Assembly (NCBI GenBank): GCA_965216565.1
Contig: OZ244170.1
Span: forward strand, 4,800,001-4,864,000
Source: Bythopirellula sp.
GTDB lineage: Bacteria; Planctomycetota; Planctomycetia; Pirellulales; Lacipirellulaceae
Reading direction: 5' to 3'
Length of the DNA: 64,000 nt
The notes beneath the pieces were generated by a model. That model worked only from the letters and a program-made list of their open reading frames with translations, ran no database searches and was not told the DNA's origin. The number at the start of each line of letters is the position of its first letter. The stretch's first letter is position 1. Below, piece by piece: positions 11,575 through 27,921 of this stretch. The translations under genes were made by a program, and so were the position numbers.

Positions 11575-13176
11575 ATGGCAAACAAATCGCCGCAAACGGA
11601 AGGTTCGGATTCCTCTGACCCAAGCGTGCGCTCCGACTCGGAGCATGCTGCGGATCAGGTGAAATCGCTCGGCAGAGCCACAGGGTCGGGCTTCTCTTGG
11701 CTGACATTGAGTTTGCTGATTGGTAAGGCCTGTATTTTTCTAGCCCAAGTTGTGCTGGGTTGGATTCTTACCGCCGAAGATTTCGGTGTGTTTGCCATTG
11801 CAGCTTCAGTGATTGGCTTCATTAAAGTCTTTCACGATGGCGGAGTCCCCCAGGTACTTGTTCAACGCGGAGAAGAAGAATTCAAGCGTTTGCAGGGAGC
11901 CGCCTTCTGGATTGCAATGACGATCAGCCTGATGGCTGGAATTGTTCTGGCATTTCTCGCACCTTGGATCGCAAGCATCTATGGAGATAGTCGTCTAACT
12001 TCGGTCCTTTGGGTGTTGGCTGTCTCATTGCCGCTGGGGGCCCCGGCCAACGTGCTACGTGCGCGTCTTCAGCTCGATTTGCGGTTTCGAATCATCTCGA
12101 TGATTTCCGCAGGCAGATTTATAATTCGCAGCGTGGCAATGGTGATTCTCGCCTTGCTTGGCTACGGGGTGATGAGTTTTGTCCTACCGCTGCTGATCGT
12201 GGCAGTTTTTGAAAACACTACTGCCTATTTGGCGACACGTTCCAAACCTTGGAAGAGTCCGGTGCTGTGGAAAGAATGGCCTGGATTGCTGGGCGATTCT
12301 TACTGGGTGGTGTTCGCAACCGTCTGCCGCGGTCTCGCCCGATACGGGGGATACCTTGTGTTGGGCCTGCTAATCGCGCAAGGACTGCTGGGCCAATACT
12401 TCTTTGGATTCCAATTAACGATTCAAATCACTTATCTGGTTGCGCTTAACCTAAGGCATGTCTTGTTCCCTGTGATGACGAAGCTGGCAGACCAGCCCGA
12501 GCGTCAGTCGCGGGCCATCCTGCGGACTATTAGCGTGCTGATGTTGGTCGCAGCTCCGACCAGCATGATTTTTGCCTCGATCGTTGAGCCACTCGAGCAA
12601 TTCGTCTGGCATGGCAAATGGGCCTCGGCGGTACCGTTGATGCAGATCTTTGCCATCCTTGCCCCGCTGATGATTATCTCGGACATCTTGCAGGCAGCAC
12701 TAAACTCTCGGGGTCAGTTTCGATTGGCCGGATATCTAACATTCTTGGAAGGTTGTTGGTTGATGTTGTCCTCTTGGATTGCTGTCTCGCTGGCTGGAGA
12801 CACCAACATCACAGGAGTTGCCGCTTGGTCAGCAGGGTTGCAGGTTATTTATATCTTGATTGTGAGTTGCTTCATGCTGAAAGGCTTTGGCATTGAACCC
12901 GCAGAATTTATAAGGGGATTTCTCAAGCCTTGGAGTGTTGCGGCCGCTAGTGTGGTAATCGCTTTAGTTACTGCCATCTACTTGCCAGCGTCGATGATGG
13001 AACTGCTTAAGATACCGCTGTTGGCAATAATTTATTTCATTAGCTTTTCGATACTGGCACAGGTGTTGTTACGCACGGACGTGCAGCACTTAGCCAATGT
13101 AGCTCCCCGCAAAATAGCCAGCGTCGTAAGAGTGTTGTTTCTCTTGCCGGCAAAAGAAGGGTCAACTGGTGGGTAA
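11575..13176 (+). CDS. wzx: Oligosaccharide flippase (Wzx/WzxC-like, MOP superfamily)
   Basis: Polytopic protein with about 12-14 TM; LTAEDFGVFA N-terminal motif; position in the glycan cluster. Confidence 0.85.
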   Translation: MANKSPQTEGSDSSDPSVRSDSEHAADQVKSLGRATGSGFSWLTLSLLIGKACIFLAQVVLGWILTAEDFGVFAIAASVIGFIKVFHDGGVPQVLVQRGEEEFKRLQGAAFWIAMTISLMAGIVLAFLAPWIASIYGDSRLTSVLWVLAVSLPLGAPANVLRARLQLDLRFRIISMISAGRFIIRSVAMVILALLGYGVMSFVLPLLIVAVFENTTAYLATRSKPWKSPVLWKEWPGLLGDSYWVVFATVCRGLARYGGYLVLGLLIAQGLLGQYFFGFQLTIQITYLVALNLRHVLFPVMTKLADQPERQSRAILRTISVLMLVAAPTSMIFASIVEPLEQFVWHGKWASAVPLMQIFAILAPLMIISDILQAALNSRGQFRLAGYLTFLEGCWLMLSSWIAVSLAGDTNITGVAAWSAGLQVIYILIVSCFMLKGFGIEPAEFIRGFLKPWSVAAASVVIALVTAIYLPASMMELLKIPLLAIIYFISFSILAQVLLRTDVQHLANVAPRKIASVVRVLFLLPAKEGSTGG

Positions 13177-13992
13177 GTCTTCCAGCCAACGGCGATCAGG
13201 CTCGTAGCCTGCCGCAATAAGTGCGTCGCCACAGTGTCGGTCGAATACCTCGCCCGCTTCGCGTGTGAAATGGTTTTTCCAATCGCCCGCGATCCCTTTG
13301 CGGAGAAATTTGGATTTGTCTTCACTGTTTGGTTTGCGACCGGATCGACGTGAGAAAGAGAAATCGTTTAGTATGAATTCGATCCGTTCGGAACTAGGTT
13401 CTTTGCCGTCGAGTTTGGGCATTTCGGATGATAGCGCCTGCAGGCCATCGCTGAGTAATTCTTCGTATTTGAGACAAGGCACTTTCGAGTGATCGCGGTC
13501 GAGATAGGAATTAACGTGTTCACCCCAACTACACCTGCAACCCAAGGTTCGATTGATTTGAGTCTCCAAAAACCGAGGGAAATTCTGGCGAACGGTTTGG
13601 GGGTCATCCGCGTCCAAATAGATGCTGCGCTGGTCGGCAGGCAACCAACGCTGCTCGCCACCTTTGAGAATGCGTTGGATATGATAGTACATCGAAACCA
13701 TCACATCGCGGCCATCGCGCATAACGTAAACTGAATGAGGGTACTTGTCATCGAGCAACTCATGGCCGTGGACGACCGCGGGAAATCCGACGGGTAAGAT
13801 CGAACTTTTCGGAAACGGCAATTGTAGATAGGCCGCTGTGAGCTGGCACGCCCAGGTGGTTCCGCTCTTCGGGTAGCCAACGACATACACCAGTGGAATC
13901 GCCTTGGGAAACCACATCCCAAGCCGCCATGTGACAAGATGAGAGACCGCCACGAGTCGACGGCTTAAGCCCTTGCGGTTCACCGAGAGCAT
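13162..13992 (-). CDS. Sulfotransferase (Sulfotransfer_1 type)
   Basis: PAPS 5'-PSB loop GYPKSGTTW, 3'-PB motif RDGRDVMVS, C-terminal RKGIAGDWKNHF. Confidence 0.92.
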   Translation of the reverse strand: MLSVNRKGLSRRLVAVSHLVTWRLGMWFPKAIPLVYVVGYPKSGTTWACQLTAAYLQLPFPKSSILPVGFPAVVHGHELLDDKYPHSVYVMRDGRDVMVSMYYHIQRILKGGEQRWLPADQRSIYLDADDPQTVRQNFPRFLETQINRTLGCRCSWGEHVNSYLDRDHSKVPCLKYEELLSDGLQALSSEMPKLDGKEPSSERIEFILNDFSFSRRSGRKPNSEDKSKFLRKGIAGDWKNHFTREAGEVFDRHCGDALIAAGYEPDRRWLEDLPTS

Positions 13993-14161
13993 GAATGTGC
14001 CTTATTTGAGTCGAGGGGCCTGGAAACCAAGATCGGGGCAAACGACAAAAGTGCTAGATTTGGTAGGATAGAATATTATTTCCTCCCCAGACGCCTGGAT
14101 CCAATAACTTCACCGAGCACCCGTACTCTCAGCAAGCACCATATAGCTGCGAGATCTAACC

Positions 14162-14845
14162 ATGAGCTTAACGAAAGACGAAAATAACGAAAGCTCCGGG
14201 CTTGCAGATTCTCCAGGATCAATGGTCGGTACCGAGATGTGTCGTGTTGATGAAATCGAGATTGCAGAACCCGTGACATTTCGGGGCATCCTGCCCGACT
14301 TGCTAATCCACTCTCCTCCCCGGCATGGTAGATCCTGGCCATACTACGTTCTCCGGCTGTTCACGACGGCCTTGATATCGTCTGGCTTTCACATGATGCT
14401 TGTCTACCGAATTGGTGCTTATCTGCATCGCTTGCGTCTGTTACCACTGAGCCTCCTTGCTGAGAAAATCATCTATCACTGGTATCATTGTGTGATTCCA
14501 TGTAGCGTACGCATGGGTCCCGGAGTTTGGGTCCCCCATCCCCTGGGGATCGTGCTGAATAGCAGGGCTCGGCTTGGAGCAGGCGTGTGGTTGCGTCAAT
14601 TCACAGAGATTGTCCATGTCTGGGAAGAAGACAAAGATCGATCTGGAATTGTCGGCGATCGAGCCCAACTTAATAGTGGTGCGATTATCTTGCGCGGCGG
14701 GCTAGTGGGCCACGATTCGATTGTCGCAGCCCGGGCTGTTGTGACGAAGCCGGTTCCACCCAAGAATCTCGCGAAGGGAATTCCGGCCAGTTCTAGTCCA
14801 CTGAGGATCGAACAATTACCAGAGAAAACCCCTCGCTGGATATAG
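14162..14845 (+). CDS. CysE/WcaB-like hexapeptide-repeat acetyltransferase
   Basis: PHPLGIVLN motif and left-handed beta-helix repeats ending ARAVVTKPVP...GIPA; start uncertain. Confidence 0.75.
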   Translation: MSLTKDENNESSGLADSPGSMVGTEMCRVDEIEIAEPVTFRGILPDLLIHSPPRHGRSWPYYVLRLFTTALISSGFHMMLVYRIGAYLHRLRLLPLSLLAEKIIYHWYHCVIPCSVRMGPGVWVPHPLGIVLNSRARLGAGVWLRQFTEIVHVWEEDKDRSGIVGDRAQLNSGAIILRGGLVGHDSIVAARAVVTKPVPPKNLAKGIPASSSPLRIEQLPEKTPRWI

Positions 14846-14873
14846 TTTTTTTCAATCAGGCTGCGTCGATTCT

Positions 14874-15761
14874 ATGAATTTCCCGAACCTTCTCATCATT
14901 GGTGCCATGAAAGCGGGCACCACGAGCTTATACATGGACCTCACCTCCCATCCCCGGGTCTATCGTGCGGAGGATAAAGAACCACACGCGCTCTGCAGTG
15001 ATGCAGTGCTCACAGAGAGTGGCCGCGCTGCCTATGGAAATTCCTATGCCAATCTCAGCAGTCAGACGATCGTACCGGACGCCTCGACAGGGTATTCGAA
15101 ACGACCTGATCAGGAGGGTGTTGTCGATCGAGCGGTGAAGACATTGCCCGATGGATTTCGAGTGATCTACGTTGTCCGGCATCCAATTGACAGGATCATT
15201 AGCCAGCATCATCACGAATACACGGCAGGTACCGCGAGTGCAGATTTCAACGCCGAAGTCCGCAACGAATCTAAGTACTTAAACTACAGCCGCTACGCCT
15301 ATCAACTGACACCGTGGCTAGATGCCCTAGGCAGGGATCGCGTCTTAGTGTTGAAGTTTGAGGACTACATTGAGTCTCGATCAGAAACTATGGAAAAAGT
15401 CCGTCAATTTCTAGATCTCGACGACCAAGTCATACCTGAAGATCAGACGCAGGTTTACAATAAAACGGCCGGTAAACCAGTTAGAAATCGATTCTGGGAT
15501 TTAGTTTTCCATAGTCGTGCTTATCGCCTTATGGTTCGACGAGTCCTTTCACCAAGAGTCCGATTAACTCTGATGCAATGGTTTTTACCGAAAGGATCCT
15601 TACAACCGGAAGCCCCTTCGCCTGAAACCATTTCGTGGCTACGCGAACAGCTGCAACCGGACCTTACAGAATTGCAGGAAATGCTGGAATTGGGGGTGCC
15701 ACTTTGGGAAGACCTCTGCACCGATGTCCAAAATCCAACCAGTTCCGTAGCTACAACCTAG
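14874..15761 (+). CDS. Sulfotransferase (heparan-sulfate sulfotransferase-like bacterial family)
   Basis: PNLLIIGAMKAGTTSL, KEPH and RHPIDRIISQ motifs. Confidence 0.9.
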   Translation: MNFPNLLIIGAMKAGTTSLYMDLTSHPRVYRAEDKEPHALCSDAVLTESGRAAYGNSYANLSSQTIVPDASTGYSKRPDQEGVVDRAVKTLPDGFRVIYVVRHPIDRIISQHHHEYTAGTASADFNAEVRNESKYLNYSRYAYQLTPWLDALGRDRVLVLKFEDYIESRSETMEKVRQFLDLDDQVIPEDQTQVYNKTAGKPVRNRFWDLVFHSRAYRLMVRRVLSPRVRLTLMQWFLPKGSLQPEAPSPETISWLREQLQPDLTELQEMLELGVPLWEDLCTDVQNPTSSVATT

Positions 15762-15847
15762 TATTAATTGTCTATCTACCCCGCGAACAATAGGTCTTCC
15801 AAACCTAGACGAGCGTGGTATGTACCGAATATAGAGATTGAAGATTC

Positions 15848-17179
15848 ATGCAAAGCATAGTTGTCATGCTGCTGGCCTTATTGGCCTTCCTACTCACTCT
15901 GATGATGTTGATGCAGGGGCTGAGTCGCAAGGTCGATCTATTCAGCGTGCGCAACTTGTATTTATTCAGCTTTCTTGTCTATCAAATCATCAGTCCAGCC
16001 TATGTGCTTTATGCTGATTACTACCCGATGTTCAAGATTAATACTCCTGAGCATGATGCGCAAACGTTCTTGGTTTATTGCTACGCTTATGTTTTTATCT
16101 TGTTGCTTAGTTACCATCGGGTAAAAATCTCTTCCTGGTTCGCCAGTAAATTATCTGGCCCACCTCGTACAATCGACGACTCCTTTTTTCTGGGGTTGGC
16201 GGTCATGCTGGTCTTCATCGCGGTTCCATTGCGGTTCTTAGGGCCCAGTGTTCCTCTGCTTTCGAAGGCGTCCGTCCAGATCTCTATTGCCATGGCTGCT
16301 GTAGCTAGCGCGATTGCTGGATGGGTTTGGGGTGGCAGAAGGTTTAACCCGATGGTGATCGCGATGATGGTATTCATCGTGGGATCCAGCTTAGGCATCG
16401 GCATGTATGGTGCTTTCGGCCGTAGACCCCTGCTCAGTATTCTTTTAGGCATGGCATGGGGCTTCTACCATCGAAGGGCTAGAGATATTAAGCCGATTCG
16501 ATTGATTTTGGGTCTGTTGCCAATCGTGCTATTTGTCGCTTTGGCTGTGAGTGCTTTCACGGCAATCCGCAACAATCGCGATACGGCTCAGTCTCAGGTC
16601 ACCGATACAGTCTCGCAGATGTCCCAGGCAAACGTCGGATCCGGAGCACAGAACATTATCACGGGACAAACTTGTGGCGCTGCCAGCTTCTGGTGCATCG
16701 AGAATTACCCCACACCGATTGAACCTCGCTATCTCTATAGCATGAAGGTCCTAGTCTGCTGGTACATTCCTTCGATCTATTGGGAAGATAAGCCGGTTCC
16801 GCTGGGCAACCATATCGCTAAATTGGCTAGAATTCCTCGTGTTAACCAGGACAAACTGACTCTACCGCCCGGTGTGATTGGGTATGCAGCTGCCGAGGGA
16901 GGATGGATTGCGATTATCGTCTATGCTCTCTTCTACGGACAGTTCTTGCGATTCTTCGATGAATTGGTGCGGCTCAATCCAAAGAACGCTTTCATCTTGC
17001 TGCCTGTTGGTTGTGCCACGGGCCAAGTATTGGGTCTGGCTCGTGGGTGCATTGCGATTTTTGCCAATCTAATGATTATGGGTTTCATTGCCACTTATGT
17101 GTTTCTCTTTGTGGCAAATAAATTCTTTGGTCGCGATTCACAGCCCAACTATTGGTACCCGTGGCCTCAGCCTCGCTAA
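15848..17179 (+). CDS. Putative Wzy-type polysaccharide polymerase
   Basis: About 10-11 TM with a large loop after an 'FTAIR' Arg; the only polymerase candidate in a WecA/Wzx cluster (call rests on context). Confidence 0.6.
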   Translation: MQSIVVMLLALLAFLLTLMMLMQGLSRKVDLFSVRNLYLFSFLVYQIISPAYVLYADYYPMFKINTPEHDAQTFLVYCYAYVFILLLSYHRVKISSWFASKLSGPPRTIDDSFFLGLAVMLVFIAVPLRFLGPSVPLLSKASVQISIAMAAVASAIAGWVWGGRRFNPMVIAMMVFIVGSSLGIGMYGAFGRRPLLSILLGMAWGFYHRRARDIKPIRLILGLLPIVLFVALAVSAFTAIRNNRDTAQSQVTDTVSQMSQANVGSGAQNIITGQTCGAASFWCIENYPTPIEPRYLYSMKVLVCWYIPSIYWEDKPVPLGNHIAKLARIPRVNQDKLTLPPGVIGYAAAEGGWIAIIVYALFYGQFLRFFDELVRLNPKNAFILLPVGCATGQVLGLARGCIAIFANLMIMGFIATYVFLFVANKFFGRDSQPNYWYPWPQPR

Positions 17180-17209
17180 GTAAACCATTTAGAAACTCGT
17201 CCACAACCT

Positions 17210-18388
17210 ATGGCTAACCGTCTTTCAGTGTTGCACTTTATAAGACGGGTCCGCGCGGAGGACGGCGGGGTTGTGCAAACCGTTCTGGATTTGTGCCAAA
17301 CCATCGCTGCCGCGGGACATAACGTAACCTTAGCCACCACCGACGCCACCGACGTACCGCAGCAGTGGCGTGACCATGGCGCCGAGACCCCCCAGGTACT
17401 TGAGCTTGGCCCCACGACATTCGCGAATCGACTTAGCCGACATTCACTCGGCTTGATTGAGTCGAAGTTGGGTGAAATCGAGGTGGCCCACCTGCATACG
17501 CCCTGGGAATTGGCCAACGTGCAACTCGCTGACGCGTTTCGCAAGGCTAGTATTCCTTACGTTGTTACTGCCCATGGGATGTTGGACGACTGGTGCATGA
17601 TCCAGAAGCCGCTCAAAAAGAAGATTTACCTGAGTCTGTTTGCCAAGCGGCTATTTGGGAAAGCATCCGTAGTCCACTTTACCGCAGAGGCAGAGCGTGA
17701 TCAGGCACTGAAGTACGTGCCTGCCGGAGGCGGCCCCGCGATTCAAGCCTGTGCGATGGATCTTTCACCTTACGAGAATCTTCCGGGCAGGCAGCCCGCC
17801 TTGGACGCCTTTCCGCAGATCAATTCGGAGCGGCAGTCTATTCTGTTTCTAAGCCGTATCCATCCCAAGAAGGGAATTGAGATCCTGCTCCGTGCCGGCG
17901 CCGAATTGAAAGCCAGAGGCATGCCAACCCAAATACTGATTGCTGGGCCTGGCGAAGAATCCTATATCAATGAGCTCAAGTCGCTGGGCCAAGAACTCGG
18001 ACTGGAAAGAGATGTGCACTTTCTTGGCATGGTGCGAGGAGAAACCAAACTCTCCTTGTATCAGTTGGCCGACGTGTTTGTGCTGCCGACTTACCAAGAG
18101 AATTTCGGCTTAGTCTTACCCGAGGCCATGGCAAGCGGCACGGCTGTGGTGACAACGCGCGGGACCGACATCTGGCGAGAACTAGAACAAGCGGGTGCCA
18201 AAATCGTGGGGAACGAACCGAGTGACATTGCTGGTGCGATCCAGGAGTTCCTAACAGATGAAGAGCATCGCAAGGCGTCGGCAGAGCGCGGCCAACAATC
18301 TGTTGCCGAATGGCTCGGAGCGGACAACGTAGCCACGGGTTATGAAAACCTCTATCACACTGCCCTTGAGCGAGGTCCAATATCCTAG
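17210..18388 (+). CDS. GT4 (GT-B) glycosyltransferase
   Basis: DGGV, HGML, FLSRIHPKKG and ENFGLVLPEAMA (EX7E) motifs. Confidence 0.92.
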   Translation: MANRLSVLHFIRRVRAEDGGVVQTVLDLCQTIAAAGHNVTLATTDATDVPQQWRDHGAETPQVLELGPTTFANRLSRHSLGLIESKLGEIEVAHLHTPWELANVQLADAFRKASIPYVVTAHGMLDDWCMIQKPLKKKIYLSLFAKRLFGKASVVHFTAEAERDQALKYVPAGGGPAIQACAMDLSPYENLPGRQPALDAFPQINSERQSILFLSRIHPKKGIEILLRAGAELKARGMPTQILIAGPGEESYINELKSLGQELGLERDVHFLGMVRGETKLSLYQLADVFVLPTYQENFGLVLPEAMASGTAVVTTRGTDIWRELEQAGAKIVGNEPSDIAGAIQEFLTDEEHRKASAERGQQSVAEWLGADNVATGYENLYHTALERGPIS

Positions 18389-18984
18389 TGAGCAATCAAC
18401 CAGCACAAGATGCCACTCCCCTCGAACAACATGTCGATGCCAAGGCGTTTCTCGACCTGAGCTCATTCAGTTCCAAGGGCTACTCCTCGGGACGTAGCAA
18501 AGTTGTTGAGTTACTCTGGTACTACTGCAGCCTGTTCGTCATGGAGAGTGGATTTTTTCCCTTCTACAAGATCAAGGTCTGGCTACTGCGACAGTTCGGT
18601 GCCCAGATTGGGACCGGGGTCGTCATCAAACCTAACGTTCGGATCAAGTATCCGTGGCGGTTGGTAGTAGGCGATCACTGTTGGATTGGGCAAGGGAGTT
18701 GGATTGATAACATCGAAGACGTGACCGTCGGCGACCATGTTTGCATTTCGCAACTTGTCTATTTCTGTACCGGCAGTCATGACCATCGGATTTCCTCCTT
18801 CGATCTCACAGCCAAGCCGATCGTAGTGCAGAATGGAGCGTGGGTGGGAGCTGGTGCCTTGGTGTTGGGTGGAATCACGGTCGAAGCGAACGCCATTGTG
18901 GCTGCCGGGAGTATCGTCACCAAAGACCCCCAGGCAGGATCGATTGTCGGTGGCAATCCGGCAAAGGTTATCGGTAAAAGGTAG
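18388..18984 (+). CDS. wcaF: WcaF-like extracellular polysaccharide acetyltransferase
   Basis: LLRQFGAQIG, IKYPWRL, CISQ and CTGSHD motifs; hexapeptide repeats. Confidence 0.88.
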   Translation: MSNQPAQDATPLEQHVDAKAFLDLSSFSSKGYSSGRSKVVELLWYYCSLFVMESGFFPFYKIKVWLLRQFGAQIGTGVVIKPNVRIKYPWRLVVGDHCWIGQGSWIDNIEDVTVGDHVCISQLVYFCTGSHDHRISSFDLTAKPIVVQNGAWVGAGALVLGGITVEANAIVAAGSIVTKDPQAGSIVGGNPAKVIGKR

Positions 18985-19011
18985 AGATGAGACTAGAATC
19001 AACTCGTTCGA

Positions 19012-19020
19012 TGTTATAAT
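19012..19020 (+). promoter_or_regulatory. Extended -10 promoter internal to the glycan cluster
   Basis: Perfect TGnTATAAT (TGTTATAAT) 48 bp upstream of ATG 19069 in an AT-rich spacer. Confidence 0.6.
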
Positions 19021-19068
19021 AATTGTTCTTATTGGCCATCATTCAACAGCAAGTTAGTAGTTCCTAAA

Positions 19069-19836
19069 ATGCCATTCGACAAGATCATCAAGAGACTGAA
19101 ATACCCCCACAAGAAGACGGCCCTGAACTATTTCATGGACGATCCTCGACTGGTGTTTGGAATTCCATCGACTCCCAACAAGACGCATGTTGGCAGTTTT
19201 ATCGAACGGGCCATGGGAAAGAATATTGTGGAATCACTCCACTACTTTCTCCCCCGCGAACTAACTGACTGCCTCGATCAACATGGTGTGTGGGATACAC
19301 AGGGCTATCGGTTGATGTTGTACCTGCTGGTACGAAAACACCGGCCCGAGATCGTTGTTGAGACGGGTGTCGCACGTGGAACATCGAGCTCCTATATTCT
19401 GCAAGCCATGCGCGAAAACGGCACGGGGCATCTGTATTCCATCGACTTGCCCGCCGAAACGGTTGCCGTCGACGACGAACCCGATCGCGAAAGTCATCGC
19501 TTTACACTGGCCGATGGCCAAACACACCAGCAATACGAAGTTGGCTACATTGTGCCCGATTTTCTACGCGACCGTTGGACGCTGACCTTAGAAGATTCAC
19601 GCACTGCATTGCCGGCACTCATGGAGAAGCTGGGCACGATCGACTTTTTCTATCACGATAGTTTGCATAGCTACGACCACATGAAGTTTGAATTCGAAAC
19701 CTCATGGCCACACATCAAAGACGGCGGGCTCTTGCTATCCGACGATGTGCTGTGGAACAACGCCTTTCATGAAGTCTGCAAAGCACAGAACAGAAAGCCC
19801 TCCATCTATCGCAGCTTTGGGATGATTCAAAAATAG
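19069..19836 (+). CDS. Class I SAM-dependent methyltransferase (Methyltransf_24-like)
   Basis: VVETGVARGTSS, LYSID, DFFYHDSLH and GGLLLSDD motifs. Confidence 0.88.
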   Translation: MPFDKIIKRLKYPHKKTALNYFMDDPRLVFGIPSTPNKTHVGSFIERAMGKNIVESLHYFLPRELTDCLDQHGVWDTQGYRLMLYLLVRKHRPEIVVETGVARGTSSSYILQAMRENGTGHLYSIDLPAETVAVDDEPDRESHRFTLADGQTHQQYEVGYIVPDFLRDRWTLTLEDSRTALPALMEKLGTIDFFYHDSLHSYDHMKFEFETSWPHIKDGGLLLSDDVLWNNAFHEVCKAQNRKPSIYRSFGMIQK

Positions 19837-19982
19837 GTCCGCGGGAAACAGCGAATGTAGCGGTTATCCGATGCCCGGGCTGTTACGATCGGAACAAAGC
19901 TTTTCAGTGTTTTTCCAGGCTATGCCTCTAGCCCCGGTGGTTGTGGCTGGTTGGCTTGGGGGATGGTATTCTGAAGTAGATA

Positions 19983-20876
19983 ATGAGTGAACTCGATTAC
20001 CCCCAACTCCTGAAACCCATTGTTGTCATCGGCTCTCCCCGATCTGGCACGACCCTGCTTGGGAACTTGCTTGGCGCTCATCCAGCATTGGCTCACCTCG
20101 TAGAACCGCGGCTGACATGGAAATTCGGGAACGACTCGAAGTCGGATATGTTGCGGGTCGAGGACGCACGCGAAGATGTGTGCCGACACATTCGACAGAC
20201 GTTTGCTCAAAGCGTTGTCGAGCAAGGACGCGAGCGTTTGTTGGAAAAAACCCCCAGCAATTCGCTGCGAATGGAGTTTGTCGATCGAGTGTTACCTGGC
20301 TGTCAATTCGTACATATCATCCGTGACGGGGTCGAGTCGGTACTTTCAATCCGAAAATTTTGGCAAGGGCATGCCCGCGGTATTCAAAAAGGAAAAATAG
20401 GCGAACGGCTTCGCGAGATTAATTTCCGCAGAGCACCCCACTACGCAAAGGAACTCATGCGGCGGGTATTACCGGAGAGTTTCTCCGGGGTGGTTGGCCA
20501 CGCAGTGTGGGGCCCCCGTTTGCCTGGCATCGATGGTTTGTTGAAGGACCTGAGTGTCTTGGAAGTCTGCTGCTTGCAATGGCGGATGAGTGTGGAAAGT
20601 GCCTGCTACTTTGGTCGCAGCCTACCCCGAGAACGCTATATGGAATGCCGACTGGAGGACATGTCGCCTGAGCTTCTAGAGTCGGTTCTCGAGTTTTGTA
20701 ACTTGCAAGTCACCGACGAAGTCGGGGCCCGATTTCAATCGCACTTTGATTCAAAGCTTACCACCAGACGACAAGTTGAGGCTGATCCCGAGGACTTAGC
20801 GGTCATTGAGCGCTGGATTGGCCCGACACGTGCCTGGCTTGTCCAGACATCTCACGCTGAGCACTGCACCACCTAA
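19983..20876 (+). CDS. Sulfotransferase (Sulfotransfer_3 type)
   Basis: VIGSPRSGTTLL, EKTP and HIIRDG motifs. Confidence 0.9.
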   Translation: MSELDYPQLLKPIVVIGSPRSGTTLLGNLLGAHPALAHLVEPRLTWKFGNDSKSDMLRVEDAREDVCRHIRQTFAQSVVEQGRERLLEKTPSNSLRMEFVDRVLPGCQFVHIIRDGVESVLSIRKFWQGHARGIQKGKIGERLREINFRRAPHYAKELMRRVLPESFSGVVGHAVWGPRLPGIDGLLKDLSVLEVCCLQWRMSVESACYFGRSLPRERYMECRLEDMSPELLESVLEFCNLQVTDEVGARFQSHFDSKLTTRRQVEADPEDLAVIERWIGPTRAWLVQTSHAEHCTT

Positions 20877-20942: not shown

Positions 20943-22199
20943 ATGCCTTCCAAATCCAAACCAGTTTTTTTGGTCATCTCCCAAGTCTTTCCACCCGACC
21001 CGATAGCGGTTGGTCAGCATATGCGCGATGCGGCACGGGGACTTGCTGAGCGGGGGTTTGAGGTTCGGGTGCTTACTTCCGGGCGTGGCTATGACGATCC
21101 CACGGCGAAGTATCCACCCCGCGAGACGATGGACGGCGTCGATGTGATCCGACTGCCTTTGTCTTCGCTGGGTAAGAAAACGATGGCCCATCGATTAGTG
21201 GGGCAGTCTCTGTTCTTGTTGCAGACAATTTTCCGAGGTCTCTTCACTCCCCGCCTAGCTGGCATTCTAGTGAGCACCTCGCCACCCATGGCCTCAATTG
21301 CCGCCTTGATAATTCGTTTGTTCCGTAGTGCGCGTATCAAGTTTTGGGTAATGGATCTTAATCCCGACCAATTGATCGAAACGGGACGCATTAAAGAAAC
21401 GTCTCTGCCGGCTCGAATTTTTAATGCGCTCAATAGAATGATTCTCCGTGCCTCCGACGACGTGGTGGCACTCGATCGGTTTATGGCGGAACGTCTGCTT
21501 AGGAAGGTGAACGTCAAAGACAAGATATCTATCCAGCCCCCCTGGCCGCATTCCGATCACCTGGAAACAGTTGAGCATGCCGAGAATCCGTTCCGCAAAG
21601 AACACGATCTCGAAGACAAGTTTGTGGTGATGTATAGTGGCAATCACGGTCAAACGACGCCGGTCACAACCGTGCTCGACGCCGCGGTTCGCATGCAAGA
21701 TCGCAAGAGGCTTGTGTTCATGTTTATCGGCGGTGGTGTGGGCAAACGTGATGTCGAGGCCACCATTGCCAAGCACAACCCGACGAACATTATCGATCTG
21801 CCCTACCAGCCGATCGATCGCATCAAATACAGCCTTTCGGCCGCGGATGTCCATTTGGTTACCATGGAAGAATGCGTGGTGGGCGTGATTCATCCTTGCA
21901 AAATCTACGGAGCCATGGAAATCGGCAGGCCCATTCTTTCCGTGGGTCCCGAGGAATATCATGTCTCAGACGTCATGCAGGGAAGAGACATCGGTTGGCA
22001 CGTTCCTCATGGAGATGTCGACAAACTGATAGAAACGTTGGACATGATTCTTGCCCTGCCGCAGGAGAAACTCCGCGAAATGGGTAATCGGGCGGCTAAA
22101 ATTGTGCAAGAGAACTACCAACAACAAGCCATGATCGAAGAGTTCACCGACATCATGGTGCGCAACGTGCCTGGTGCTCCTATAGAAAGTAACGAGTGA
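20943..22199 (+). CDS. GT4 glycosyltransferase (WcaI/WbuB-like)
   Basis: SQVFPPD, STSPP, MDLNPD, YSGNHG and PCKIYGAM motifs. Confidence 0.9.
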   Translation: MPSKSKPVFLVISQVFPPDPIAVGQHMRDAARGLAERGFEVRVLTSGRGYDDPTAKYPPRETMDGVDVIRLPLSSLGKKTMAHRLVGQSLFLLQTIFRGLFTPRLAGILVSTSPPMASIAALIIRLFRSARIKFWVMDLNPDQLIETGRIKETSLPARIFNALNRMILRASDDVVALDRFMAERLLRKVNVKDKISIQPPWPHSDHLETVEHAENPFRKEHDLEDKFVVMYSGNHGQTTPVTTVLDAAVRMQDRKRLVFMFIGGGVGKRDVEATIAKHNPTNIIDLPYQPIDRIKYSLSAADVHLVTMEECVVGVIHPCKIYGAMEIGRPILSVGPEEYHVSDVMQGRDIGWHVPHGDVDKLIETLDMILALPQEKLREMGNRAAKIVQENYQQQAMIEEFTDIMVRNVPGAPIESNE

Positions 22200-22624
22200 A
22201 CATGCCGAAGTTTCGTGTTGATCATATTGGCGTCGCTGTTCGCGATATGGACCAGGCCCTAGCGTTATACACCGATACGTTCGGGTACAAGTTGGTACGT
22301 GGCCCCTTCGATGATCCGGAGCAACAAGCTCAAGTCGCATTCATCGAAACTGCCGCACCGGACGATCCTGCGTTGGAATTGGTAGCTCCGCTGGCCGAGG
22401 GATCCCAAGTCGAGCGTGTGCTCGCCAAGGGGCTCAGCCTATACCATATTTGCTATGAAGTCCCAGACATTGAGCTAGCCATCGAGCACCTGCGAGCTCA
22501 GAAATGCCTCCTGGTTAGCGGTCCTACGCCGGCAGTGGCCTACGACGGCCGACCGATTGCCTGGCTCTATACACCCAACCGACAGCTTACTGAGTTAGTA
22601 GAAGCCCCCCCAGAATCGTCATGA
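22196..22624 (+). CDS. VOC family protein, methylmalonyl-CoA epimerase-like
   Basis: DHIGVAV, LELVAP, LYHICYEV and ELVE metal-ligand pattern; GTGA overlap with the upstream stop. Confidence 0.85.
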   Translation: MNMPKFRVDHIGVAVRDMDQALALYTDTFGYKLVRGPFDDPEQQAQVAFIETAAPDDPALELVAPLAEGSQVERVLAKGLSLYHICYEVPDIELAIEHLRAQKCLLVSGPTPAVAYDGRPIAWLYTPNRQLTELVEAPPESS

Positions 22625-24510
22625 GTTTGCCCGCCGAAAAGCGCAAAGAAATCGACCAGGCCATTGCAGATTCGCAAGTGGGCCGAGCACTGGCGTTGCT
22701 CAAGGGGCTGTGGCGAACGGAGCCATCGCTGGCCATGGCTCCCTTTATCGTGGATCGTTTTGGCAAGCTTTCCGATGCACCGCCGACCGTCTCCTGTAAT
22801 TTGTTGGTTCTACGTTCGTTTACCGTCGAGCCAGTCGTACCGCTCGCCCGGGCCGGCGCGCTCTGCTATGGCATGGATCTCTCCGTGCGAGTCGGCCAGT
22901 TCAATAGCTACGTGCAGGAAATTCTCGATCCCAACAGTACGCTGTATCAAGATCCCACCGACGTGGTGTTGCTAGCCGTTCAAACTCGTGATCTCGCGCC
23001 GGAGCTTTGGTCTAAATGGACCGATTTGGAAACTAAAGAAGCAGGGGCAATCATCGCGCGGATTATCGAGGACTATCGCACGTGGGTTGCAACGATACGC
23101 TCTCGTAGTTCCGCCCATATAGTGATTCACAATTTGGAAAAACCTCCGCTTGCTTCTGCCGGCATTCACGATGCCCAGTGTAGCAACGGTCAGCTCGCCG
23201 CCATCGAACAGATCAACGCCGGTCTTGCCACACTCTGCGGAGAGTTCACTGGTGTCCATGTGCTAGATTACGAACAACTGGTTGCCCGTCATGGCCGGGA
23301 ACGATGGCATGACGAACACAAATGGTTGACGGCGCGGCTACCAATTGCTGCCGATGCGTTGATTCACTTGGCTAATGAATGGCTGCGGTACTTGTTGCCA
23401 ATTCGTGGCAAACAGGCGAAGTGCCTGGTCTGCGATTTAGACAATACTCTCTGGGGTGGGATCATCGGCGAAGATGGCATAAACGGTATCAAGCTGGGCG
23501 GCGAGTACCCCGGAGCCGCCTACTTGCAATTACAAAGAGCCGCACGCGACCTGATCAATCGTGGTATCTTGTTGGCTGTCTGCAGCAAGAACAACGAAGC
23601 CGACGCACTGGAAGCCATCGACGAGCATCCCGAGATGCTGCTCAGGAGCAAAGACTTTTCGGCACTCAAGATCAACTGGACCGACAAAGCACAGAACTTG
23701 CGCGAGATTGCTGAGGAGCTGAATATCGGAATCGATTCCCTAGTGCTGATCGACGACAACCCCGTGGAACGCGAATTTGTTCGCGAAATGCTTCCCGAAG
23801 TAACGGTCATTGATATCGATGCCGACGCCCCCCTGGGGCATGCCACGGCTTTGCAGAGTTGCCCCTTGTTCCAGCGATTGGAGGTCTCTGCGGAAGATCG
23901 CAAACGGAGCCAGATTTATGCCGAGCAACAGGAGCGGGCCACTCTGAAATCGTCAGTCACCTCCATCGAAGACTACTACCGCTCGCTCGAGATGGTGGCG
24001 AGCTTCGGCCTGGCCGACGAGGCGAGTTGCCCTCGCGTAGCACAGTTGACACAGAAGACCAATCAACTCAATATGACAACTCGCCGATACAGCGAGCAGG
24101 ACATTCAAGCCTTCATAGCCGATCCCCAAGTGCGGGTTTATTGGGCACGTGTGGAAGATCGATTCGGCGACAATGGCATCGTCGGTGTGATGATTGTTCG
24201 CGACGAGGGCGAGCAATGGATGATCGATACGTTTCTGATGAGCTGCCGGGTCATTGGTCGCACAGTCGAAACTGCCATGTTAGGAATCCTGGCCGAACAC
24301 GCCGAGCAAAGTGGTGCACGCAAGCTATTGGGTCCCTTCGTGCCCACTGCCAAGAATGCTCCGGCTCAAGAGATCTACGCCAACAACAAATTTCAGTGTA
24401 TTGAAGAAAACGATTCAGGATCGCTGTGGGAATTGGATTTTAGCCAAGCTTCGCTAAGACCACCCGAGTGGATCGACTGCAGACAGAATAAGAGTTTAGG
24501 AGTTTCGTGA
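22621..24510 (+). CDS. FkbH-like HAD-IIIC glyceryl transferase/phosphatase
   Basis: DLDNTLWGG, CSKN, DDNPVER, QKTNQ, DRFGDNG and LMSCR motifs; ATGA overlap. Confidence 0.93.
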   Translation: MSLPAEKRKEIDQAIADSQVGRALALLKGLWRTEPSLAMAPFIVDRFGKLSDAPPTVSCNLLVLRSFTVEPVVPLARAGALCYGMDLSVRVGQFNSYVQEILDPNSTLYQDPTDVVLLAVQTRDLAPELWSKWTDLETKEAGAIIARIIEDYRTWVATIRSRSSAHIVIHNLEKPPLASAGIHDAQCSNGQLAAIEQINAGLATLCGEFTGVHVLDYEQLVARHGRERWHDEHKWLTARLPIAADALIHLANEWLRYLLPIRGKQAKCLVCDLDNTLWGGIIGEDGINGIKLGGEYPGAAYLQLQRAARDLINRGILLAVCSKNNEADALEAIDEHPEMLLRSKDFSALKINWTDKAQNLREIAEELNIGIDSLVLIDDNPVEREFVREMLPEVTVIDIDADAPLGHATALQSCPLFQRLEVSAEDRKRSQIYAEQQERATLKSSVTSIEDYYRSLEMVASFGLADEASCPRVAQLTQKTNQLNMTTRRYSEQDIQAFIADPQVRVYWARVEDRFGDNGIVGVMIVRDEGEQWMIDTFLMSCRVIGRTVETAMLGILAEHAEQSGARKLLGPFVPTAKNAPAQEIYANNKFQCIEENDSGSLWELDFSQASLRPPEWIDCRQNKSLGVS

Positions 24511-24749
24511 TGAGTGCCGAAGTAACCGACGAAGTACGACAAACGATTGCCGAAGTGTTCTTTATCGATGCCTCGGAAGTAACCGCGGAATCGACACCAG
24601 AGACGATTGCTGCCTGGGATTCGATGGGTCACTTGAACCTGATTCTGGCACTCGAGCAAAAGTTTGGTCATACCTTCGATCCCGAGCAAATCCCCCAACT
24701 CACGTCTGTCGCAGCGATCGCAGAAGCTGTCTCTGCAAAGAACGGCTGA
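24507..24749 (+). CDS. Acyl carrier protein
   Basis: 80-aa acidic protein with WDSMGHLNL phosphopantetheine site; GTGA overlap with the FkbH-like gene. Confidence 0.92.
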   Translation: MMSAEVTDEVRQTIAEVFFIDASEVTAESTPETIAAWDSMGHLNLILALEQKFGHTFDPEQIPQLTSVAAIAEAVSAKNG

Positions 24750-24768
24750 TTTACGAATTGGTTCGATT

Positions 24769-25866
24769 ATGGGTGCTGCTTCCGACGCCAAGATCATCGT
24801 ACGCGAGGCAACGCCTGCCGACCTAAAAGACGTCACTGCTCTCCTTTCGGCCCGCGACGGTATCGATCGCAGTCAGCAAGTGGTCGACGCTTATCTATGG
24901 GGACTCGACCCGAGTTGTACGCGGACTTGGCTCGCTTATGTTGGCAATGAACCGGTCGGGATCACCATGCTCTATCTTCGCCACATGCGGTGGCCCCAAG
25001 AAGACAACTCAAGCACGATGAAATTGGCGGGCTACTGGTCGCACCTGTATGTGATGCCGGAGTACCGCAAGCTGATGATTTATCCCCAGTTGGTGTTGGG
25101 AATGATCCGTGGCATGCGAACCGCAGAGATCGACCTAATCTTTACCGCTACACGTCAGGCCGATGTGGCCGAGGGACACCAAAAGCTGGGCTTCGCACTG
25201 GTCAGCAAAATGCCGCTCCGATTGCGACCGTTACGCCCTTTTAGGCTGCTCGCCAAGCACAAAGGAGCAGGGTTGCTGGCGCCATTTTGTGGCCCAAGCG
25301 ACGCGATTTACCAATTTTTGCTTGGCCGAGAACCAGCGCAGGATGTTCCGATCGAAGAGATTTCACTGGAATCGAGCGACGTCGAAGAAATAGTGGCACT
25401 ACTGAATTCGCCAGACAATGATTTAGTGCGTCAGGATTGGACTGTGGAACAGTTCCGACGACGATTCCGAACGACACTCGACGGCACCAAGTACCGTCTT
25501 ACAGCAATTCGCTCTGAGGGCAGGCTCGTTGCCGGATTGATAACGGCCTTAGTCGAACGTGGGAACAACATTCGCGCGGGCATCGTCTTAGATATTGCCG
25601 CTTTGCCGAGTGCTTCTTTGGAACAGGTCAACAGCCTTATTGCCGAGGCAGAGCAGCATGCCCACCGACACGAAGCCGAAGTGATGTTGGCATTGGAACG
25701 GTCTCTTTTCATTGATCAATGGGGCGATACCTATGGCAAGTACCTAGCGAACGATTCCGAGACTTATCACATGCTGGTGTATCCCAAGCCACTAGCCCAA
25801 GAACCGTTCGCGGCAGCCCAGCTTGAGAACTGGTACTTTTCCTATGCCGATCATGATGCGTTTTGA
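24769..25866 (+). CDS. GNAT family acyltransferase
   Basis: LYVMPEYRKLMIY motif A variant and HQKLGF motif B; ATG 24769 lies 19 bp after the ACP stop. Confidence 0.75.
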   Translation: MGAASDAKIIVREATPADLKDVTALLSARDGIDRSQQVVDAYLWGLDPSCTRTWLAYVGNEPVGITMLYLRHMRWPQEDNSSTMKLAGYWSHLYVMPEYRKLMIYPQLVLGMIRGMRTAEIDLIFTATRQADVAEGHQKLGFALVSKMPLRLRPLRPFRLLAKHKGAGLLAPFCGPSDAIYQFLLGREPAQDVPIEEISLESSDVEEIVALLNSPDNDLVRQDWTVEQFRRRFRTTLDGTKYRLTAIRSEGRLVAGLITALVERGNNIRAGIVLDIAALPSASLEQVNSLIAEAEQHAHRHEAEVMLALERSLFIDQWGDTYGKYLANDSETYHMLVYPKPLAQEPFAAAQLENWYFSYADHDAF

Positions 25867-25909
25867 AACCTCCATCCAGAATTGACGAAGAACCTTCCTA
25901 AGAGTACCG

Positions 25910-26767
25910 ATGCCTGACAGTCAACTAAAGCATGCCTTGTCGTTCGATATCGAGGACTGGTTCCATCTGGTGGGGATCGAGGCGGTTGCCGATCCGAATG
26001 AGTGGGATACGTTTCCGACTTTGGTCGAGGAATATACGCAGTGGATTGTCGATGCGCTGGGAGAGCACGACACGCGGGCGACGTTCTTTATCCTAGGTTG
26101 GGTTGCAGACCGATACCCTCAGCTAGCTCCAAAGATTGCTGCGGCCGGGCATGAGATTGCCTGCCATTCTTTTTGGCACACGCGAGTTGATCAACTGACC
26201 CCAGAAGAATTTCGCGAGGAGACATCTCGGACCAAGAATCTTCTTGAACAGCAAACAGGAAAACAGGTGGTTGGTTATCGAGCTCCAAGTTTCTCTATCA
26301 CTCCAGGAGCCGAATGGGCTCTCGACGAACTAATCGATATGGGTTTCACCTACGACGCCAGTTTTTTCCCAGCCCAACGTGCTCACGGGGGATATCCGTG
26401 CCCGCAGGAGGCCCACGATTTCTCAGGGACCCCCTCCGGCCGAACGATCCGTGAGCTGCCGATGAGCGTCTTGAATCTGGGGCTGACCCGATTGCCGTTC
26501 AGTGGCGGAGGCTATTTGCGGCTCTTGCCCCAGTGGCTGATTCGCCATGGATTCAACAAGTTCGAAGCGAACGGTATCCCGGTGGTCACGTACTTGCATC
26601 CCCGCGATTTCGCCGCAGATTGCCCCTCAGTGCCGATGTCTGCGTGGCGACGATTCAAGTCTTATACAGGATTGAAGACCACCAAAGACAAGCTGCAGAT
26701 GATGCTGGCAAACTTCTCATTCGACACCTGTGCTGCCGTGGCCACTGCCCCGGAGCCTGAGGCGTGA
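25910..26767 (+). CDS. CE4 polysaccharide deacetylase with DUF3473-like C-terminus
   Basis: SFDIEDWF, ATFFILG, HEIACHSFWH, GYRAPSFS, GGGYLRL and YLHP motifs. Confidence 0.92.
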   Translation: MPDSQLKHALSFDIEDWFHLVGIEAVADPNEWDTFPTLVEEYTQWIVDALGEHDTRATFFILGWVADRYPQLAPKIAAAGHEIACHSFWHTRVDQLTPEEFREETSRTKNLLEQQTGKQVVGYRAPSFSITPGAEWALDELIDMGFTYDASFFPAQRAHGGYPCPQEAHDFSGTPSGRTIRELPMSVLNLGLTRLPFSGGGYLRLLPQWLIRHGFNKFEANGIPVVTYLHPRDFAADCPSVPMSAWRRFKSYTGLKTTKDKLQMMLANFSFDTCAAVATAPEPEA

Positions 26768-26931: not shown

Positions 26932-27921
26932 ATGAGTAGTAGAAACGTATTGGTTGCTGGTGGAGGCGGTTTTATCGGTGGTCACTTGGTTCGTGATCTT
27001 CTCAAGGATGGCCATAAGGTACGCTGCGTCGATATTAAGCCCCAGGACCAGTGGTATCAGGTTGCTGATGAGGCGGAGAATGTTGTCGCCGACCTCAAGG
27101 ACATCGCCAACTGCAAGACGGCCTGCGAAGGTATGGACGATGTGTACAATCTGGCAGCTGACATGGGCGGCATGGGCTTTATTGAAAACAACAAAGCCCT
27201 CTGCATGCTCTCGGTTCTGATCAATACCCACTTGCTCCAAGCATCGCAGCAATCGGACGTAGAGCGATTCTTCTACGCCTCGAGCGCTTGTGTTTACAAC
27301 GCTGACAAGCAAGTCAGCGAAGATGTTGTGCCCTTGAAGGAAGAAGACGCTTATCCCGCGATGCCGGAAGATGGCTACGGTTGGGAGAAGCTGTTCAGTG
27401 AACGCATGTGCCGCCACTTTCGCGAAGATTACGGACTCCGCACACGGGTCGCCCGCTTCCACAACGTTTATGGACCCTATGGCACCTGGGAAGGCGGACG
27501 AGAAAAAGCCCCTGCTGCGATCTGCCGCAAGGTGATCATCGCCAAGGACAAAGATGCCAAAGAAATCGAGATTTGGGGCGACGGCAAACAGACCCGTAGC
27601 TTTATGTACATTGACGACTGCGTCAAAGGCATCCGCATGATTATGGATAGCGATATTCTAGAGCCGATCAACTTGGGTTCAGACGAACTGACCACAATCG
27701 TCGGTTTGGCGGAGATGGTCGAAGAGATCGCTGGCGTTGATCTCAAACACGATCACAACCTGTCGGCCCCTAAGGGAGTGAACGGTCGCAATAGCGACAA
27801 CACGCTCATCCAAAAGCATCTCGGTTGGGCACCTGGCATTAAGCTCCGCGACGGCATGGAGCGGACCTACAATTGGATCAACGAAGAATACCAGAAGAAG
27901 TACGCTGGCCAACCAGCTTAG
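26932..27921 (+). CDS. GDP-mannose 3,5-epimerase-like extended SDR
   Basis: GGGGFIG, LAADMGGMGFI, YASSAC, YGWEK, GGREKAPAA and GRNSDN, all characteristic of GME. Confidence 0.88.
   Translation: MSSRNVLVAGGGGFIGGHLVRDLLKDGHKVRCVDIKPQDQWYQVADEAENVVADLKDIANCKTACEGMDDVYNLAADMGGMGFIENNKALCMLSVLINTHLLQASQQSDVERFFYASSACVYNADKQVSEDVVPLKEEDAYPAMPEDGYGWEKLFSERMCRHFREDYGLRTRVARFHNVYGPYGTWEGGREKAPAAICRKVIIAKDKDAKEIEIWGDGKQTRSFMYIDDCVKGIRMIMDSDILEPINLGSDELTTIVGLAEMVEEIAGVDLKHDHNLSAPKGVNGRNSDNTLIQKHLGWAPGIKLRDGMERTYNWINEEYQKKYAGQPA

Follow-up and report, generated by a model that had tools for sequence, protein, structure and literature searches.

What does a metalloenzyme of the vicinal oxygen chelate (VOC) superfamily do in a bacterial glycan locus, wedged between a glycosyltransferase gene and an FkbH-like gene? 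The question is raised by a 64,000-nucleotide stretch of the Bythopirellula sp. genome (contig OZ244170.1, positions 4,800,001 to 4,864,000; hereafter the window), in which genes for a VOC protein, an FkbH-like protein, an acyl carrier protein (ACP), a GNAT acyltransferase and a carbohydrate esterase family 4 (CE4) deacetylase stand in a row. We found that these genes probably form a real, conserved and exchangeable module that replaces an N-acyl group in an ACP-dependent manner and delivers a glycerate-derived group; that this acyl swap includes epimerization at C2 to L-glyceroyl is the best overall explanation, favored by a modest degree. The cassette and its glycosyltransferase neighbor are laid out as follows.

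20943..22199, plus strand: WcaI-family GT4 glycosyltransferase, a conserved neighbor of the cassette (NF007640 152 bits, below the cut-off of 276)
22196..22624, plus strand: FkbH-linked VOC metalloenzyme, proposed C2 epimerase of glyceryl-S-ACP (PF13669 E=1e-19; H10, E61, H84, E133)
22621..24510, plus strand: FkbH-like putative glyceryl-ACP loader (TIGR01686, PF21211; FkbH_N, HAD and a C-terminal domain with Cys542)
24507..24749, plus strand: dedicated ACP (PF00550; Ser39 in WDSMGH)
24769..25866, plus strand: tandem GNAT, proposed ACP-dependent sugar-amine acyltransferase (N-myristoyltransferase (NMT)/Eis fold in the model; C-terminal (D/E)HDAF)
25910..26767, plus strand: CE4 de-N-acetylase without signal peptide (PF01522 and PF11959 (DUF3473); D13/E15/D16, H86, H90, R124, H230)

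The five cassette open reading frames (ORFs), VOC to CE4, are all intact at these coordinates with their catalytic motifs present; the overlaps bear out the close spacing, and the family scans the gene labels, of a first-pass annotation. Two of the 4-bp overlaps that it listed, between GT4 and VOC (GTGA, 22196-22199) and between VOC and FkbH (ATGA, 22621-22624), stand as described. The third (FkbH/ACP, GTGA, 24507-24510) is real, but the spacing of an AGGAG at 24498-24502 suits the ATG at 24510 better than the start of the annotated ACP ORF; the ACP probably starts at that ATG, and the two genes may share only 1 bp, within TGATG. Between the ACP stop and the GNAT start lie 19 nt, and 43 nt separate the GNAT stop from the CE4 start. 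Polyketide synthase (PKS), nonribosomal peptide synthetase (NRPS) and membrane-bound O-acyltransferase (MBOAT) domains were absent from the 53 window ORFs scanned, again as first described. Ketosynthase matches in the genome all lie outside the window, the nearest 55 kb past its end, and the single MBOAT match is 2.9 Mb away.

The closest relatives are Planctomycetota records. We fetched 56 GNAT loci through a GNAT alignment (39 + 17) and limited the co-occurrence count to the 24 whose flanks reach 2.9 kb or more in both directions, leaving out 32 that were too short on one side; the set is partly redundant (L008 equals L084, L009 equals L011, and L013 is close to L008). An ACP is present in 24/24 of these loci, FkbH in 23, CE4 in 23, a WcaI-like gene in 16, VOC in 9, a close homologue of the GDP-mannose epimerase downstream of the cassette in 8, a MaoC-dehydratase/ketoreductase (KR) fusion in 5 and an AMP-ligase in 1. 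The sole locus lacking FkbH (1/24) carries an AMP-ligase, a short-chain dehydrogenase/reductase (SDR) and an ACP. The methyltransferase at 19069, first suggested to O-methylate the transferred group, has a homologue in 0/56 GNAT loci and is not a cassette member. Gene order is shuffled among the relatives, to the point that in one locus (L038) the donor genes are divergent from the GNAT gene, and two proteins are ACP-GNAT fusions (P0206 and P0234). Because the grouping recurs in shuffled orders and as fusions in distant genomes, it reflects more than chance.

It could still be argued that the genes are functionally unlinked, the GNAT being an ordinary acetyl-CoA enzyme, the VOC a second methylmalonyl-CoA epimerase (MCE) and the FkbH-ACP pair a feeder of a distant PKS or MBOAT, given that multi-ketosynthase ORFs and one MBOAT occur elsewhere in the genome. 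The ACP-GNAT and VOC-FkbH fusions, the ACP beside the GNAT in 24/24 loci, the invariant M103 and the Y/F105 that replace the glycines of the GNAT CoA motif, and a separate MCE at the mutase operon all speak against this explanation, which is largely excluded and to which we assign very little probability.

Parts of the cassette are exchanged between loci. Three donor modules occupy the same slot: VOC-FkbH-ACP, dehydratase/ketoreductase-FkbH-ACP and ACP-SDR-AMP-ligase. Between loci L008 and L014 the identity is 86% for FkbH, 77% for the ACP and 88% for CE4, and only 41% for the GNAT; between GNAT and FkbH, L008 carries the MaoC-dehydratase/KR fusion and L014 the VOC. The GNAT was found in 8/119 other genomes of the window's family, three of them being loci already counted, and in the other five ACP-SDR-AMP-ligase lies between the WcaI-like gene and GNAT-CE4. 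Identity to the window in these five loci is 49-52% for the WcaI-like protein, 57-67% for CE4 and 31-32% for the GNAT. Because of these identities, CE4 and the sugar-building genes appear as the constant part, while the acyl-ACP supply and the GNAT vary together. In quickly built, long-branched trees of GNAT and FkbH, some donor changes coincide with longer GNAT branches, which falls short of establishing co-evolution. No FkbH-type VOC was found in the five ACP-SDR-AMP-ligase genomes, where no genome-wide FkbH search was made. These loci (L153-L157, in G706, G693, G694, G613 and G614) are predicted to make a different N-acyl group, perhaps a hydroxyacyl group, with the same GNAT family.

MaoC-dehydratase/SDR fusions stand by FkbH in the glycan loci L008 (11159-12715), L009, L010, L013, L084, L124 and L128. 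In polyketide pathways a MaoC-dehydratase/KR turns glyceryl into lactyl, and the arrangement suggests that such loci form N-lactoyl groups through lactyl-ACP. In another relative (L018:5428-6978) the 5' part of the GNAT gene runs straight into the 3' part of FkbH and the VOC is missing, apparently a decayed cassette.

The FkbH-like protein exceeds the TIGR01686 cut-off by a wide margin (313.9 bits against 146.65) and matches PDB 3SLR (E=4e-48). It has the HAD motifs DLDNT 272 (D272-x-D274), K323 and D378-D379 and a C-terminal C542, which we take to be the HAD residues and the catalytic Cys, respectively. The gene is present as a single copy in the genome. The ACP scores 27.3 bits with PF00550 (cut-off 20.8), its W and phosphopantetheine Ser are invariant in 28/28 aligned cassette ACPs, and the genome encodes two phosphopantetheinyl transferases (two PF01648 matches). 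FkbH occurs in 27/201 genomes of the order and was absent from the other genomes sampled within the same family (0/19), a patchiness that would be expected if the glycan module is mobile. FkbH loading chemistry is described in PMC8949500.

The VOC protein belongs with neither of its best known relatives. It scores below the cut-offs of the MCE profile TIGR03081 (67.7 bits against 114.95) and of the classical glyoxalase I (GlxI) profile TIGR00068 (29.4 bits against 120). H10, E61, H84 and E133 are invariant in 43/43 homologues, and the His/Glu/His/Glu metal site that they form lies within one subunit, as in MCE, with both Glu kept. The model is closest to 3HDP/2QH0 (TM 0.84-0.85), the Clostridium acetobutylicum 'glyoxalase I' that we take to be CA_C2192; it aligns with MCE structures at TM 0.71-0.79 and with classical E. 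coli GlxI at ~0.37, and does not have the domain-swapped topology of the latter. The best sequence match is again the C. acetobutylicum enzyme (E=2e-14), with a profile score of 104 bits against 69 for human MCE, and the Gly-rich loop of MCE is replaced by PAVA(F/Y) in the FkbH-linked VOC family. ESM Atlas searches with VOC and GNAT returned only generic MCE/VOC and GNAT clusters. A predicted complex of the VOC dimer with the ACP scored 0.00, run without controls, and carries no weight either way.

A quickly built tree of 57 VOC sequences places 29 of them in one clade (SH-aLRT 99), which includes the genome's own MCE-type protein and excludes the window VOC; the 28 others were not shown to form a single clade. 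That MCE-type protein is 27% identical to the window VOC, and its gene is found upstream of ORFs recognized as mutase-like by their N-terminal sequences. No FkbH, ACP or GNAT was found in the 29 MCE-clade loci, for which the fetched flanks were mostly only 1.5 kb per side, while 24/28 of the VOCs outside that clade have at least one of the three in the fetched locus, a count biased by the fact that most of these were fetched via FkbH or GNAT. The remaining four comprise two next to radical-SAM genes and two standing alone, both of the latter in genomes that have just one FkbH cassette, itself without a VOC. The former (L093 and L094) represent a further subgroup beside radical-SAM/SPASM genes, belonging neither to the MCE clade nor to the FkbH-linked set. 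A VOC match on a Sphingomonas plasmid adjoins methylmalonyl-CoA mutase, with no FkbH annotated there. Among 12 longer VOC matches eight are VOC-FkbH fusions, one confirmed as a 785-codon stop-free frame; another of the 12 (P0192) is a hexapeptide-repeat acyltransferase fused to an FkbH-type VOC. A role for the window VOC as the housekeeping MCE was considered and rejected, as it scores below the TIGR03081 cut-off and lies outside the MCE clade, and the genome's MCE sits by the mutase.

VOC metal sites enolize 2-hydroxy-thioesters, as in glyoxalase I, and shift protons between the faces of C2, as in MCE. Because the VOC is fused to FkbH and exchanged with an acyl-tailoring dehydratase/KR, we place its substrate at glyceryl-ACP, an assignment that these gene contexts make quite probable. 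C2 epimerization is the simplest reaction for it, because two Glu are retained and a reductase partner is missing; the proposal that the VOC inverts D-glyceryl-ACP to the L form, already made in the first-pass annotation, is plausible and is rated slightly above even, its chemistry being inferred only. The part of that proposal that concerns the substrate is the better supported one.

Two other roles for the VOC have to be weighed against epimerization, and flagellin glycosylation in Campylobacter jejuni bears on both. Strain 11168 carries dimethylglyceroyl-Pse (Pse, pseudaminic acid); in strain 12664 cj1302 (FkbH-domain) is a pseudogene, strain 12661 is without cj1301 (annotated as an epimerase), and neither has dimethylglyceroyl-Pse (PMC7099621). 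The tie between the FkbH and epimerase genes and this derivative is a link that we draw ourselves, one not made in the accessible parts of PMC7099621 or PMC3068675. First, the same N-acyl swap could deliver D-glyceroyl, with the VOC as an accessory that acts on the sugar or serves in glyoxalase-like repair or editing, for example of methylglyoxal adducts on the ACP thiol. The title 'glyoxalase I' of its closest structure fits this explanation, as do the lack of a VOC in 15/24 well-flanked loci, the failure to find such a VOC in G601 and G602, two larger genomes whose cassette has none, and the existence of D-glyceroyl amides, known from the Pragia fontium glycan (PMC10609480). The topology is, however, MCE-like rather than of the domain-swapped GlxI type (TM 0.77-0.85 against 0.37), the VOC fills the slot of an acyl-tailoring dehydratase/KR and is fused to FkbH, and the C. 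jejuni strain without the epimerase gene is also without the glyceroyl derivative. We consider an accessory VOC unlikely, though worth keeping in view. The simple idea that the VOC is cleanly optional and that VOC-less cassettes make D-glyceroyl is weakened by a lone FkbH-type VOC in 2/6 such genomes, and because lone VOCs occur beside VOC-less cassettes, VOC presence or absence is not readable as L versus D.

Second, the enediolate could eliminate water or phosphate from C3 to give pyruvoyl-ACP, or lactoyl-ACP if reduced by an enzyme from elsewhere, so that the glycan would carry N-pyruvoyl or N-lactoyl. When glyoxalase I is given halogenated substrates, elimination from the enediolate does occur, and this precedent, together with the exchange of the VOC for a MaoC-dehydratase/KR fusion, keeps elimination in play. 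A reductase is absent from the cassette and none travels with the VOC, in C. jejuni, where FkbH and an epimerase share a locus, the glycerate skeleton of the product is intact, and the GNAT changes when the VOC is swapped for the dehydratase/KR, as different products would predict. Elimination is in our estimate improbable, and epimerization is the reading carried forward.

The GNAT protein has weak family matches (PF00583 E=0.003; no NCBIfam match). Its model (pLDDT 93.6) superposes on N-myristoyltransferase with Z 24.2 and on Eis-type proteins with Z ~19-23, at a root mean square deviation of ~4 A over ~290-320 residues and 7-14% identity, and by this model it belongs to an unannotated family with the NMT/Eis shape. 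No match to a characterized ACP-dependent sugar acyltransferase appeared in the fold search, a result that excludes nothing. The extreme C-terminus is DHDAF or EHDAF in 63/64 close homologues and HDAF in 63/70 wider homologues. R100 and M103 are invariant in 47/47 homologues and position 105 is Y or F. CoA-binding GNATs carry a glycine-rich motif A, and M103 and Y/F105 at the positions of these glycines fit an ACP donor. The base that acts on the amine in NMT and Eis is the C-terminal carboxylate; because of this role N-acylation is favored, and the conserved C-terminal sequence of the GNAT makes its carboxylate a candidate base as well.

The CE4 protein has the catalytic motifs of its family and, by crude hydropathy, neither a leader nor a membrane helix. 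It falls below the cut-off of the XrtA-system deacetylase profile TIGR03006 (265.4 bits against 276.2), and a FemAB-related partner for a system of that type was not recovered, the adjacent GNAT being without an NCBIfam match. No sugar aminotransferase (DegT) was found among the window and locus ORFs scanned, and because the locus lacks one, the amine must come from deacetylation. Alternatively, the acyl-ACP could serve O-acylation or a non-sugar amine of a lipid or protein, with CE4 an independent plain glycan deacetylase: the top fold match of the GNAT, NMT, is a protein N-acyltransferase, FkbH-ACP-VOC units elsewhere pair with MBOAT O-acyltransferases, and one locus (L078) has no CE4 within 10 kb. 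Yet CE4 lies beside the GNAT in 23/24 loci and is kept through all three donor swaps, Eis-type and glucosamine N-acetyltransferases share the fold of the GNAT, and the scanned loci are glycan loci. There is only a slight chance that the acyl group goes elsewhere than to a sugar amine.

From the gene content, motifs, folds, fusions and swaps we infer the whole of the following chemistry, that of a cytoplasmic acyl-swap module that would tailor an amino sugar of a surface glycan. FkbH very probably dephosphorylates 1,3-bisphosphoglycerate and attaches D-glycerate to the ACP phosphopantetheine, a reaction established for enzymes of the FkbH type. The VOC would then chelate the 2-hydroxy-thioester, form an enediolate and reprotonate C2 on the opposite face to give L-glyceryl-ACP, a step that we hold to be somewhat better than evenly supported. 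CE4 is likely to de-N-acetylate a residue derived from GlcNAc or ManNAc; the first sugar on a nucleotide or lipid carrier is the best candidate acceptor, at about an even chance. Finally, the NMT/Eis-like GNAT would probably acylate the free amine from the ACP, with the C-terminal carboxylate as the likely base. Co-occurrence, fusions and donor swaps back the loading of the ACP by FkbH, the identity of the GNAT as an ACP-dependent N-acyltransferase and the freeing of an amine by CE4, all first proposed from the window by itself. The donor genes and the GNAT would constitute an exchangeable specificity cassette in a locus that otherwise stays constant, CE4 and the WcaI-like transferase included.

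Several points weigh against the full pathway to L-glyceroyl. It is read from genes. The closest structure to the VOC is that of a protein deposited as Ni-bound glyoxalase I, which places GlxI-type activity in its subfamily; the VOC is present in only 9/24 well-flanked GNAT loci, and in 2/6 genomes with a VOC-less FkbH-GNAT cassette a lone FkbH-type VOC lies at another place. All five dehydratase/KR loci come from one lineage as near-duplicates, and the swap there also lost the WcaI-like gene; the divergence of the GNAT may reflect a recombination tract, and GNATs diverge fast even among VOC loci (35-48%). The C. jejuni correlation involves two strains, with Cj1301 a putative counterpart of the VOC, and cj1295 is phase-variable, its loss alone abolishing the modification (PMC3068675).

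The cassette sits at the 3' end of a Wzx/Wzy-type glycan locus and is followed by an epimerase gene.

8113..20876, plus strand: host Wzx/Wzy-type glycan locus (WecB, WecA-like, Wzx, Wzy-like, GT4, acetyltransferases, sulfotransferases, methyltransferase)
26932..27921, plus strand: GDP-mannose 3,5-epimerase homologue (PDB 8SG0 E=4e-100)

The Wzy-like label reflects size and hydrophobicity only, with no family match. The locus has two hexapeptide-type acetyltransferases, the methyltransferase (19069-19836) and three sulfotransferases (13162-13992 on the minus strand, 14874-15761 and 19983-20876), the first of which sits inserted and overlaps the Wzx stop; its glycan is, judging from these genes, probably sulfated. 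The GDP-mannose 3,5-epimerase homologue, preceded by a sigma70-like site at 26786-26813 (11/12 promoter match), travels with the WcaI-like GT4 and hints at L-galactose or L-gulose in the glycan. Further downstream, genes for an HMA-domain protein (28625-29200, minus strand) and a His-rich exported protein (29265-30092, minus strand) adjoin as a possible metal-handling pair. A conserved-looking planctomycete signaling operon (30319-37037) encodes a coiled-coil protein, an unannotated 472-aa protein, a Ser/Thr kinase, an ECF sigma factor and a probable anti-sigma factor, and the minus-strand segment 37084-41028, unrelated to the cassette as far as tested, encodes an Eis-like GNAT, an unannotated 538-aa ORF and a GT2.

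Outside the phylum we examined 10 plasmid neighborhoods containing FkbH. VOC, ACP and FkbH occur with MBOAT or other transferases in 4/10 (Paludibaculum, Paroceanicella, Rhodobacteraceae SC52 and Sinorhizobium meliloti), with the Paludibaculum VOC and ACP ~19 kb from FkbH. The other six comprise two with dehydratase/KR, two of FabH or PKS type and two with neither. On S. meliloti pSymB (L140) a VOC-MBOAT-unknown-ACP-FkbH unit lies just upstream of capsular export genes, and its VOC gene is matched on pSymB of the model strain 1021 as well. A Maritalea plasmid (L128:4083-6539) encodes an AAC(3)-like N-acyltransferase-FkbH fusion by a dehydratase/KR, DUF4910 and a nonulosonate synthase, and is a non-homologous version of the same swap logic.

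Glyceroyl is known on several bacterial glycans for which the genes are mostly unassigned: the candidate in Tannerella forsythia 'remains elusive' (PMC6120980), and glyceroyl genes in Vibrio vulnificus and T. forsythia are given as unidentified in PMC5378307. A search by term of the supplements of PMC5378307, PMC6120980 and PMC7099621, as far as accessible, gave no annotation for relevant hypothetical genes, and the accessible part of bioRxiv 10.64898/2025.12.14.694251 added nothing on mechanism. The cassette supplies testable candidates and offers a five-protein, all-soluble reconstitution. If the scheme is correct, FkbH with VOC would give L-glyceroyl, FkbH alone D-glyceroyl and FkbH with dehydratase/KR lactoyl; the VOC superfamily would gain a new reaction and the solved 'glyoxalase I' would be re-assigned; an NMT-like bacterial family using ACP donors would be defined; and a lead would open on the L-glycerate of gellan, which controls the texture of its gels. 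More broadly, and with less than even confidence, we propose that FkbH-linked VOCs are unrecognized glyceryl-ACP epimerases misannotated as MCE or glyoxalase I (the C. acetobutylicum enzyme included) and a general source of L-glyceroyl on bacterial glycans, acting with GNAT, AAC(3)-like or MBOAT transferases, and that HDAF GNATs are plug-in ACP-dependent amino-sugar acyltransferases, with strains varying their surface chemistry by exchange of the donor cassette (glyceroyl, lactoyl or ligase-loaded acyl) that serves them.

Each single chemistry in the scheme is taken from a known family, and cassettes of a similar kind are widespread. A literature search, with most subscription journals outside its reach, found no published description of an FkbH-ACP-VOC-GNAT-CE4 pathway. 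The first-pass claim of no characterized pathway of this form needs qualifying to this extent: another glyceramido route has been assigned (PMC11130364), and an exchange of acetyl for glyceroyl has been proposed for Cj1295 (PMC3068675). In Neisseria meningitidis, the glyceramido-acetamido-trideoxyhexose is genetically assigned to PglB2. Its product is of the type proposed for the window system, an amino sugar with an N-glyceroyl group, there as the first residue of a glycan on a lipid carrier; PglB2 differs in having an ATP-grasp domain, a domain not found among the scanned ORFs of our locus, and no FkbH, ACP, VOC, GNAT or deacetylation is described for it in the accessible part of the paper (PMC11130364). 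The C. jejuni 11168 cj1295-cj1302 region likewise combines an FkbH-domain gene, an adjoining epimerase-annotated gene, an amidase-like gene and an N-acetyltransferase (PMC7099621, PMC3068675), but its deacylase is aminopeptidase-like instead of CE4, its acceptor is a flagellin nonulosonic acid and its group is O-methylated. There cj1295 is required and was proposed to cleave the acetamido group for replacement by glyceroyl, a proposal that in the accessible text involves no FkbH, ACP or VOC (PMC3068675). The parallel with gellan, also drawn at first, holds for the presence of L-glycerate (PMC9104527), which is an O-ester there, whereas the window cassette looks like one for N-acylation.

The C. 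acetobutylicum 'glyoxalase I' (2QH0, 3HDP) shares the motifs YHICYE and PA-x-x-x-R-x-x-A-F and the metal ligands with the window VOC and is annotated as a detoxifying glyoxalase, unlike the role proposed here; true MCEs fall in a clade apart and carry a Gly-rich loop where the window VOC family has PAVA(F/Y). A C. acetobutylicum glycan locus contains the CA_C2192 glyoxalase, a peptidase-like DUF4910 protein, an amino-sugar acetyltransferase, an ACP and a HAD/acetyltransferase, for which PMC4000134, in its accessible part, does not propose glyceryl-ACP. FkbH/OzmB-type formation of glyceryl-S-ACP in polyketide, tetronate and NRPS pathways has in common with the window a TIGR01686 score above cut-off, the HAD motifs, the Cys and a dedicated ACP. 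The window, in contrast, is without the PKS, NRPS, FkbK/FkbI oxidases and FabH-like enzyme of methoxymalonyl-ACP and tetronate pathways and has an extra FkbH_N domain, as in Bacteroides BF1531; its acceptor would be a sugar amine, its transferase a GNAT and its tailoring enzyme a VOC. In FkbH/BryA-type pathways a dehydratase-ketoreductase yields lactyl-ACP, and the sister loci have a MaoC-dehydratase/SDR by FkbH in the place of the VOC; this pair sits in a glycan locus there, and the window itself has no such gene. The NMT/Eis tandem GNATs, finally, resemble the window enzyme in fold and in a conserved extreme C-terminus, but the known enzymes use acyl-CoA, whereas the window family is tied to ACPs.

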